A stretch of DNA of 716 bases from Escherichia coli (GCF_003334255.1 NZ_QOWU01000196.1); one strand, 5' to 3'; shown: positions 1 through 716, counted from the first letter of the stretch. Notes: generated by a model not told the origin, from the letters alone. Numbers and translations: made by a program.

Positions 1-5
1 TTGAC

Positions 6-200
6 ATGACTGACTCCACTCAAACAAAAGACTTATACAGCGATTTACGCTTCATCATCATACAACAGCAATCAGGCAGGATGGATCCAACACGTGCAAG
101 CAAGGCCTGGAAAGAAGCCCTTACCGATCAGGGGATCGATGTAATTAGCGAAGTCATGGCTGAAGTGATTTTTAGGCTGACAAGAGACGAATCACTGTAA
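6..200 (+). CDS. Hypothetical small protein (64 aa from first ATG; start uncertain, possibly 5'-truncated at window edge)
   Basis: Open frame from ATG 6-8 to TAA 198-200. The frame stays open upstream to position 3, so the true start may lie outside the window, and no RBS can be assessed because only 5 nt precede the ATG. An in-frame internal ATG at 81-83 is an alternative start. Same strand as, and 25 bp upstream of, the better-supported ORF2. Product not recognised. Confidence 0.45.
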   Translation: MTDSTQTKDLYSDLRFIIIQQQSGRMDPTRASKAWKEALTDQGIDVISEVMAEVIFRLTRDESL

Positions 201-209
201 TCATCGCAT

Positions 210-225
210 AAGGACCGAGTGAAGA
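210..225 (+). promoter_or_regulatory. Putative ribosome-binding region for ORF2 (AAGGA at 210-214, GAAGA at 221-225)
   Basis: Purine-rich Shine-Dalgarno-like motifs directly upstream of ATG 226-228. AAGGA sits 11 nt from the start, which is on the long side; GAAGA abuts the start codon. Confidence 0.4.
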
Positions 226-561
226 ATGAAGCAACAACGAAATGCACGCATCAATAACAACACCGAACGCCACGTTGCACGCCAGCACTTCCGTAAAAAT
301 AGTGCGACCGTAACCACTGAAATCCACGCAACACCAGACGGCCATCCGATAAAACAAACCGGCAAGCACACCTGGACGATTGGCGACACTGGCATCGTTA
401 TTCACAAAAGTTTTCGCAGCCCTGTTACTGGCAGATTTAATTTCACCCTGACTCGCGGGGATGATTACTTCGGACAGGATTTCACATTTTTTGAAGCCTT
501 AAGAACGGCAGACAGATTAATCAACGGCCTGCGTTTTCAATATCCGGGAAGCAAGCACTGA
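226..561 (+). CDS. Hypothetical protein, 111 aa, with a strongly basic N-terminus and an aromatic-rich C-terminal half; function unknown
   Basis: Longest ORF in the window, ATG 226 to TGA 559-561, followed immediately in frame by TAA 562-564. It has an upstream SD-like motif and a single in-frame ATG. The antisense ORFs overlapping it are shorter and have Cys/Trp-rich composition typical of spurious reverse frames. No family recognised from memory. Confidence 0.6.
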   Translation: MKQQRNARINNNTERHVARQHFRKNSATVTTEIHATPDGHPIKQTGKHTWTIGDTGIVIHKSFRSPVTGRFNFTLTRGDDYFGQDFTFFEALRTADRLINGLRFQYPGSKH

Positions 562-566
562 TAAAT

Positions 567-572
567 AAAGGA
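567..572 (+). promoter_or_regulatory. Shine-Dalgarno-like motif (AAAGGA) for ORF3
   Basis: AAAGGA at 567-572 lies 7 nt upstream of ATG 580-582, which is near-ideal spacing, and sits just after the ORF2 tandem stops. Confidence 0.5.
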
Positions 573-579
573 TTCAGCC

Positions 580-716
580 ATGATCGAAGCCTACAAAATA
601 CTTATTAATAACGCGTTGCAGCGTTACCACTTCGAACTTGCAAACCGGGGCGTAACTAAGGATGAAAGCCTTCGTAACTCACTGCGCGGCGCAATTATGG
701 GGCTATACAACTGCGC
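580..716 (+). CDS. Hypothetical protein, N-terminal 45 codons only (3'-truncated by window end)
   Basis: ATG 580-582 with a well-spaced SD; frame is open through the window end (MIEAYKILINNALQRYHFELANRGVTKDESLRNSLRGAIMGLYNC...). It is absent from the supplied ORF track, presumably because no stop codon is reached. Same strand and 18 bp downstream of ORF2. Confidence 0.5.
   Translation, partial: MIEAYKILINNALQRYHFELANRGVTKDESLRNSLRGAIMGLYNC

Follow-up and report, generated by a model that had tools for sequence, protein, structure and literature searches.

A probable early-operon segment of a P88-like Escherichia coli prophage and its pair of genes with overlapping start codons

The subject of this work is a 716-nucleotide stretch of Escherichia coli DNA (GCF_003334255.1, NZ_QOWU01000196.1), hereafter called the window, which carries three small open reading frames (ORF1 to ORF3). 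The window probably represents the promoter-proximal end of the early (lytic) operon in a P88-like prophage of the P2 family, in which ORF1 would derive from a divergent gene pair and ORF2 and ORF3 would be resident genes. It is ordinary phage accessory DNA with one odd feature, namely a pair of genes whose start codons overlap. As judged from the comparison of related loci, ORF1 is the small half of this back-to-back pair, and the three genes of the window are not one unit by origin. An earlier, sequence-only reading had described them as a single cassette. This did not stand, as ORF1 comes from a divergent pair found elsewhere in P2-like phages, and the families of ORF2 and ORF3 (DUF4761 and DUF4754, respectively) are resident in P88-like phages.

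The host prophage and its early operon

The window matches the chromosome of E. coli DETEC-S792 with 100% identity. Positions outside it are given for its annotated neighbourhood, locus L001, in which the window occupies 20001-20716. According to the RefSeq annotation, the host locus is a P2-family, P88-like (Xuanwuvirus) prophage that adjoins chpBS. Its first part holds an integrase and a helix-turn-helix (HTH) repressor (C) on the minus strand, a Cox-family gene on the plus strand and a hypothetical gene of 145 aa on the minus strand. These are followed by ORF1, ORF2, ORF3, the gene of a 41-aa hydrophobic protein and more small genes. The last part comprises an exonuclease, a Dam methylase and the replication endonuclease gpA, and then the portal, terminase, capsid and lysis genes. 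ORF2 and ORF3 already bear the labels DUF4761 and DUF4754 in RefSeq, while ORF1 is listed as a hypothetical protein. With cox before them and the replication gene A after them on the same strand, and in the company of P2-type structural genes, the window genes occupy the location of a P2-like early (Pe) operon. The sequence-only reading had named a phage early region among several possible contexts and had proposed a check of the flanks for integrase and phage structural genes. Both are present in the annotated neighbourhood of this P2-family prophage, and the order of integrase, C, cox, window genes and A agrees with the early region.

A promoter of the Pe type can be read in the sequence at L001:18949-18977. 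It has the form TTGACA-N17-TAGTTT, with the -35 hexamer overlapped by the start codon of the repressor, and the annotated Pe of P2 (TTGACA-N17-TAGTAT) has the same layout. The consensus scanner omitted this site, since no more than 3 of the 6 positions of its -10 hexamer match. For the P2-type switch as a whole, the general layout has been described (PMC3448106). Once the C repressor is lifted, transcription would proceed from this P2-type Pe, about 1 kb upstream, through cox, ORF1, ORF2, ORF3 and the small genes to A. The scan for promoter and terminator consensus covered 3 kb (L001:18500-21500), from cox to beyond ORF3, and no terminator-like site was found in it on the plus strand, in agreement with the earlier remark that no terminator separates the three ORFs. 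A hairpin with a 13-bp stem lies at L001:19498-19531, after the stop codon of the 145-aa gene, and is terminator-like on the minus strand. It should not halt Pe transcripts because no T-run follows it on the plus strand.

The divergent pair with overlapping starts

The divergent 145-aa gene is located at L001:19570-20007 on the minus strand. Its ATG (window positions 7 to 5) overlaps the ATG of ORF1 (6-8) by 2 nt, and the two start codons together make up the tetranucleotide CATG (5-8). The protein belongs to phrog_2266 (E 1.4e-31, residues 5-140 against profile positions 3-143 of 144) and has no match in Pfam or PDB. Its Shine-Dalgarno (SD)-like GGAG lies 6 nt upstream of its ATG, inside codons 3-5 of ORF1, where the Ser4 codon TCC of ORF1 gives GGA on the opposite strand.

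Relatives of the 145-aa gene are present in sequenced phages, among them Klebsiella ST147-VIM1phi7.1 and Escherichia Midge (26-28% identity) and also Salmonella FSLSP004. In ST147-VIM1phi7.1 (gp04/gp05) and Midge (045/046), the two phages examined in detail, the large gene is paired with a divergent gene of 64 or 63 aa through the same ATG overlap, and the small partners there belong to phrog_2454. These pairs resemble that of the window in several ways: the large genes align as homologues from end to end (27-31% identity), the CATG overlap is of 2 nt, the partner has about 64 aa, and a GGA is supplied through the Ser4 codon. They differ from it in that ORF1 has no detectable similarity to phrog_2454, and in that the pair of the window stands after cox in the early operon, not beside cos. 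In both types of pair, the GGA given by the Ser4 codon TCC on the other strand lies 7 nt upstream of the ATG of the large gene. A scan of IMG/VR extended the comparison to 43 loci. The CATG overlap was present in every one of them (43/43), with a divergent partner of 63-64 aa in 42.

The location of the pair is also regular. In 42/43 of the IMG/VR loci it occupies the portal-proximal end of the interval from portal to gpA, and the genes that separate it from A are variable. This interval is the cos-proximal gpA-gpQ (old/tin) hotspot of P2-like phages, which is reported to hold many anti-phage systems (Rousset et al., PMC9122126). The cargo between the pair and gpA includes a gene pair of a 'polymerase' and an HTH protein (L020:3071-4307, with an equivalent in about ten IMG/VR loci), and a tum/DinI-like gene in others. 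Since this cargo differs among phages, it is beyond the pair that the variable part of the hotspot is located. Only the pair type of the window sits between cox and DUF4761, outside the gpA-gpQ interval.

In E. coli, the large gene is often missing. A second annotated coding sequence (CDS) overlapping the start of ORF1 was seen in only 2 of the 20 ORF1-bearing genomes, which leaves about 18/20 without it. The relatives without the large gene retain its first 12-14 codons upstream of ORF1, the homology to L001 beginning at 19964-19973. Because this stub of 12-14 codons remains, it appears that the large gene was deleted in these relatives and ORF1 was kept. To our searches of the literature, no description of this overlapping-start gene pair came to light.

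A possible role for the pair

The following order of events is proposed. In this lineage, the pair stands after cox and ahead of DUF4761, where ORF1 points the same way as the early operon, and the large gene would later have been deleted in most relatives. In the lysogen, the large gene would be expressed from a promoter of its own. During lytic growth, Pe would express ORF1 while read-through interferes with the large gene. Reciprocal expression of the two genes is plausible on the basis of their arrangement; if it is true, the relocated pair would have the large gene on in the lysogen and ORF1 on in lytic growth. A more far-reaching proposal is that the pair is an undescribed two-gene prophage system, either for exclusion or defence or as a self-contained switch, in which the small protein or the overlapping 5' transcripts antagonise the large gene, and that its relocation into the Pe operon couples this antagonism to the lysis-lysogeny decision. 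We offer this as a speculative and rather doubtful scheme. The overlapping-start pair, which is often met at the margin of the anti-phage hotspot gpA-gpQ, is the sole feature of the window that deserves experimental follow-up. The natural variants in its lineage (pair intact, large gene deleted, DUF4761 knocked out) would ease genetic tests.

A related explanation is that ORF1 and the 145-aa gene form a prophage system of exclusion, defence or addiction, with the large protein as effector or regulator, the small one as its antagonist, and a lone ORF1 as an orphan antidote. The rigid architecture in 43/43 loci and the gpA-gpQ location of 42 of them are in line with such a system, as is the terminator-like hairpin that the large gene carries for itself, in the manner of a moron. 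The loss of the large gene with retention of the small one in about 18/20 E. coli genomes is compatible with an orphan antidote, though not diagnostic of it. On the other hand, neither partner of either pair type has a match in PADLOC, Pfam or NCBIfam. In PADLOC-DB 2.0, nothing better than E 0.009-0.047 was obtained for seven proteins of the region and nothing for the Klebsiella and Midge pairs, and no NCBIfam model matched in the region; the defence or anti-defence context suggested by the sequence-only reading thus found no matching family. Moreover, in all 42 hotspot loci the variable cargo lies past the pair, which keeps to the portal-proximal edge and could be backbone rather than cargo. 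The annotators of Midge went no further than a 'putative transcriptional regulator', which they based on an HHpred match of 91% to T7 gp5.5/5.7. Taken together, an exclusion, defence or addiction pair is an unlikely explanation.

ORF1: origin and coding status

Several points weigh against a pair-derived ORF1 transcribed from Pe. No promoter of the 145-aa gene was found by the consensus scan. A comparison of ORF1 with phrog_2454 gave nothing by BLASTP, a probability of 0.3% by hhalign, and a z of -0.9 against column shuffles for the ungapped colinear profile score. Homology of ORF1 to phrog_2454, tested in these three ways, is unsupported, and ORF1 has no PHROG match; the two agree in geometry, in length and in their first four codons (M-x-[D/N]-S). 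The window locus thus shares with the other pairs the phrog_2266 homology, the CATG overlap and a partner of 63-64 aa, but not membership of phrog_2454. As a positional equivalent of phrog_2454, ORF1 could be either a very diverged homologue or a non-homologous replacement. Both the co-transcription from Pe and the reciprocal expression are inferred from the layout of the genes. Finally, ORF1 is weakly constrained and evolves fast, with a ratio of nonsynonymous to synonymous substitution rates (dN/dS) of 0.3-1.3 and variable sites distributed as 31/25/33 over the three codon positions.

ORF1 is a rare gene. Its start is the ATG at position 6, which is annotated and conserved in all the diverged copies examined, and the suggestion that the frame may begin upstream of the window was not borne out. 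It has no match in Pfam, PHROGs, NCBIfam, PADLOC, a tblastn search of 50,697 phage records or a profile search of PDB. Ten relatives were found among 5.8 billion protein clusters, and those with a named source are all from E. coli. Its homologues were met only in E. coli P2-like prophages, and it is present in 20 of 5,426 complete E. coli genomes, lying just upstream of DUF4761 in the loci examined. A copy that RefSeq leaves unannotated is carried by E. coli JNEC-KY176 (NZ_AP045172.1, L009:2987-3181); it is a homologue of 64 codons with 50% protein identity, located in a 352-bp gap between cox and DUF4761. Another homologue, P0033, has an 18-aa extension at its N-terminus, for which the simplest account is a 1-nt deletion that puts an upstream GTG in frame; the extension was set aside.

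It may be argued that ORF1 is not a gene, that the stretch is kept as the promoter, 5' leader or ribosome-binding site of the 145-aa gene, or as a leader of the early operon, and that the open frame is incidental. The dN/dS of up to 0.9-1.3 in some pairs and the near-even spread of variable sites over codon positions speak for this, as do the absence of any family, phage or PDB match in the above searches, the unannotated copy in one RefSeq genome, and the placement of the large gene's SD-like GGAG within codons 3-5. Against it, the frame is exactly 64 codons long, has no indel and is open in 8/8 diverged copies, even where identity falls to 72% for nucleotides and 50% for protein, while the other five frames of the stretch carry 1-7 stops; the probability that such a frame survives random substitution is 0.13-0.33 per lineage. 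ORF1 also persists in the roughly 18/20 genomes without an annotated overlapping antisense CDS, so it is not needed there as a leader. Its conserved blocks, RFII.QQ.SGR.DPTRA and VMAEVIF, flank a variable central segment with two types of allele. This alternation points to recombination among mosaic alleles, which would inflate the apparent dN/dS. The AlphaFold2 (AF2) model is a confident three-helix bundle, with a predicted local distance difference test (pLDDT) score of 87 and a predicted template modelling (pTM) score of 0.72. Furthermore, the equivalent position in 42 other loci is occupied by a clearly conserved phrog_2454 protein of 63-64 aa. The evidence is mixed and favours the coding side, and a non-coding ORF1 is quite improbable.

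The resident genes ORF2 and ORF3

ORF2 is a member of Pfam DUF4761 (PF15958; independent E-value (i-E) 3.9e-29, residues 12-104 against model positions 4-99 of 105) and of phrog_2492 (E 1.7e-34). ORF3 continues past the window as the sequence-only reading had expected, its stop lying 106 bp beyond the edge. The full-length protein of 80 aa (L001:20580-20822) belongs to Pfam DUF4754 (PF15946; i-E 1.1e-15, residues 3-77 against model positions 3-77 of 80) and to phrog_2549 (E 1.8e-28). Thus, the earlier statement that none of the three proteins has a known family is valid for ORF1 and was wrong for the other two. The dN/dS by the Nei-Gojobori method, with dS saturated in the most distant pairs, is 0.06-0.28 for ORF2 and 0.08-0.67 for ORF3, and on these sequence comparisons both are under purifying selection. 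A dN/dS near 1, which had been named as a ground for rejecting the cassette, is approached by ORF1 only, where mosaic alleles confound it; ORF2 and ORF3 are constrained.

Among sequenced phages, tblastn places ORF2 in P88 and in further Xuanwuvirus or P88-like phages from E. coli and Citrobacter (51-53% identity), and nearly the same set carries ORF3, at about 42% identity. DUF4761 is a narrow family, with 19 proteins recovered by a profile search of 1.84 billion representative proteins. Its most distant relatives, of 64-87 aa, have the C-terminal core alone in common. In P2-like prophages of Enterobacterales, such distant relatives follow, at a distance of 11-26 bp, the gene that takes the place of cox, and this gene has a Phage_Cox Pfam match in 2/4 loci. 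DUF4761 can be viewed as the positionally fixed 'second gene after cox' across the P2-like prophages of Enterobacterales, and it presents a defined target for studies of the early lytic programme.

In the AF2 model, ORF2 begins with a disordered, strongly basic tail (residues 1-33, isoelectric point (pI) 11.8) and continues into a sheet of five strands and a helix at the C-terminus, with a core pLDDT of 84-94. The tail suggests, as far as the model goes, contact with nucleic acid. As to the structure prediction and Foldseek search that the sequence-only reading had advised, ORF1 gave the three-helix bundle mentioned above. For ORF2, the top matches in AFDB50 were DUF4761 proteins, and all matches were DUF4761 or uncharacterised phage proteins across Enterobacterales; the structure search gave no fold match to a characterised protein. 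ORF3 is acidic (pI 4.7) and, going by its sequence, probably helical. The only PDB proteins to which its profile bears a resemblance are designed helical repeats, a likeness that is taken to be compositional, and this profile search gave no fold match to a characterised protein. Neither ORF2 nor ORF3 has a catalytic motif. They are resident early genes of this phage group, and their small products would most likely bind phage or host macromolecules early in lytic growth. No paper was found that names either family (DUF4761 or DUF4754), its Pfam accession or the accessions of the proteins, and the papers on P88 treat other topics.

The least probable of the explanations, and a highly unlikely one, is that the three genes make up one functional module, such as an anti-defence or host-takeover set, with the adjacency of ORF1 to the 145-aa gene being secondary: the block of ORF1, DUF4761 and DUF4754 does occur behind at least four different immunity modules, with tight spacing and no terminator, and all three products are small and non-enzymatic (two acidic, one basic), but P88 and other sequenced Xuanwuvirus phages have DUF4761 and DUF4754 without ORF1, many relatives have an extra gene of 70-92 aa between these two, distant DUF4761 genes occur without DUF4754, a nonsense codon interrupts DUF4761 in one lineage with ORF1 intact, and the CATG geometry of 43/43 loci ties the position of ORF1 to the 145-aa gene.

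The lineage with the nonsense codon is represented by L004:6225-6620 and L005:3665-3934, where TAG replaces the conserved Gln of GQDFT and shortens DUF4761 to 89 aa. DUF4761 is variable in other ways as well. Its C-termini differ by locus (...QYPGSKH against ...NFHAN/NFHAK), and in the loci examined an extra gene of 70-75 aa before DUF4754 was present only with ...NFHAN. The megablast matches in other E. coli genomes span either 1-508 or 263-716 of the window, and since they do so, mosaic recombination breakpoints inside DUF4761, at window positions 263 and 508, are indicated.

Comparison with the early operons of known phages

The closest known counterpart is found in P88 and other Xuanwuvirus phages (Peduoviridae), the early operon of which runs, in P88, cox, DUF4761, a 92-aa hypothetical gene, DUF4754, a small membrane protein and further genes up to A. 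The prophage of the window agrees with it in gene order, strand, the two Pfam families (DUF4761 at 51-53% and DUF4754 at about 42% protein identity) and the presence of gene A downstream. A short hydrophobic ORF follows DUF4754 in both, with 37 aa in P88, where it is annotated as a membrane protein, and 41 aa here; the likeness seen is one of position. In contrast, P88 has neither ORF1 nor the antisense 145-aa gene between cox and DUF4761. It also has the extra 92-aa gene between DUF4761 and DUF4754, where the prophage of the window has only a gap of 18 bp.

The early operon of P2 (Pe) consists of cox, orf78, B, orf80-83 and A, and that of 186 (pR) of apl, cII, fil, dhr and further genes up to A. 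The prophage of the window shares with them the divergent repressor/Cox switch, the Pe -35 hexamer over the start codon of the repressor, and the small accessory genes between cox and the rolling-circle replicase A. Cox and A are the sole early proteins of P2 and 186 with relatives in the prophage of the window. Equivalence with Orf78 or B of P2, or with CII, Fil or Dhr of 186, was rejected for want of similarity; ORF1 has none to Orf78, Fil or Dhr, and DUF4761 against Orf78 reached an hhalign probability of 0.9%.

Layout of the window

All three ORFs are on the plus strand, and the third is open at the edge of the window (Table 1). The listing of ORFs and the reading of the sequence confirmed the gaps of 25 and 18 bp between the same-strand ORFs as first described, as well as the SD-like motifs in them. 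ORFs with 45 or more codons take up 94% of the window on a single strand, compared with a mean of 50% in first-order Markov simulations, 1.6% of which reach 94%.

Table 1. Features of the window, with positions counted from its first nucleotide
Feature	Position	Strand	Basis
Start of the divergent 145-aa gene (ATG + 4 nt)	1..7	-	RefSeq annotation, phrog_2266 match, sequence read
SD-like GGAG of the divergent gene (CTCC on the plus strand)	14..17	-	junction sequences compared across loci
ORF1, 64 aa, acidic (pI 4.7), predicted three-helix bundle, without family	6..200	+	open in 8/8 diverged copies; AF2 pLDDT 87
Spacer, 25 bp, with purine-rich SD-like stretch 210-225 ahead of ORF2	201..225	+	sequence read; no terminator
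ORF2, 111 aa, DUF4761 / phrog_2492	226..561	+	hidden Markov model match, dN/dS, AF2 model
Spacer, 18 bp, with AAGGA at 568-572, 7 nt ahead of the ORF3 ATG	562..579	+	sequence read; no terminator
ORF3, first 45 codons + 2 nt, DUF4754 / phrog_2549	580..716	+	full gene 80 aa, L001:20580-20822

The purine-rich stretch ahead of ORF2 contains AAGGA at 210-214 and GAGTGAAGA at 217-225. This spacer is kept in relatives, with a 3-nt indel in two of the loci (L004 and L010). The sole promoter-like site that the scan gave inside the window, at 177-204, is a weak match to the consensus and is not conserved in L004 and L010; an internal promoter there was rejected. A perfect TTGACA hexamer at window positions 1-6 overlaps the ATG of ORF1. 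It is probably incidental because no matching -10 hexamer follows within 16-18 nt downstream. No RNA element of Rfam matched in the region at E up to 1, and the repeats found were short two-copy matches of the kind expected by chance.

Other genes of the early operon

The 41-aa hydrophobic protein encoded after ORF3 (L001:20819-20944) has a grand average of hydropathy (GRAVY) of +1.0 and, from its sequence, probably a single membrane-spanning segment. Its ATG overlaps the stop codon of ORF3 (ATGA), and because of this overlap, translational coupling of the two genes is suggested. Farther downstream, at L001:21979-22206, the early operon holds a gene of 75 aa (WP_000225756.1), which is flanked by the 3'-5' exonuclease and Dam methylase genes and has no antitoxin-like neighbour annotated beside it. 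It is labelled hypothetical in this prophage, and the same accession is annotated as a 'ParE family toxin-like protein' in strain EC2.

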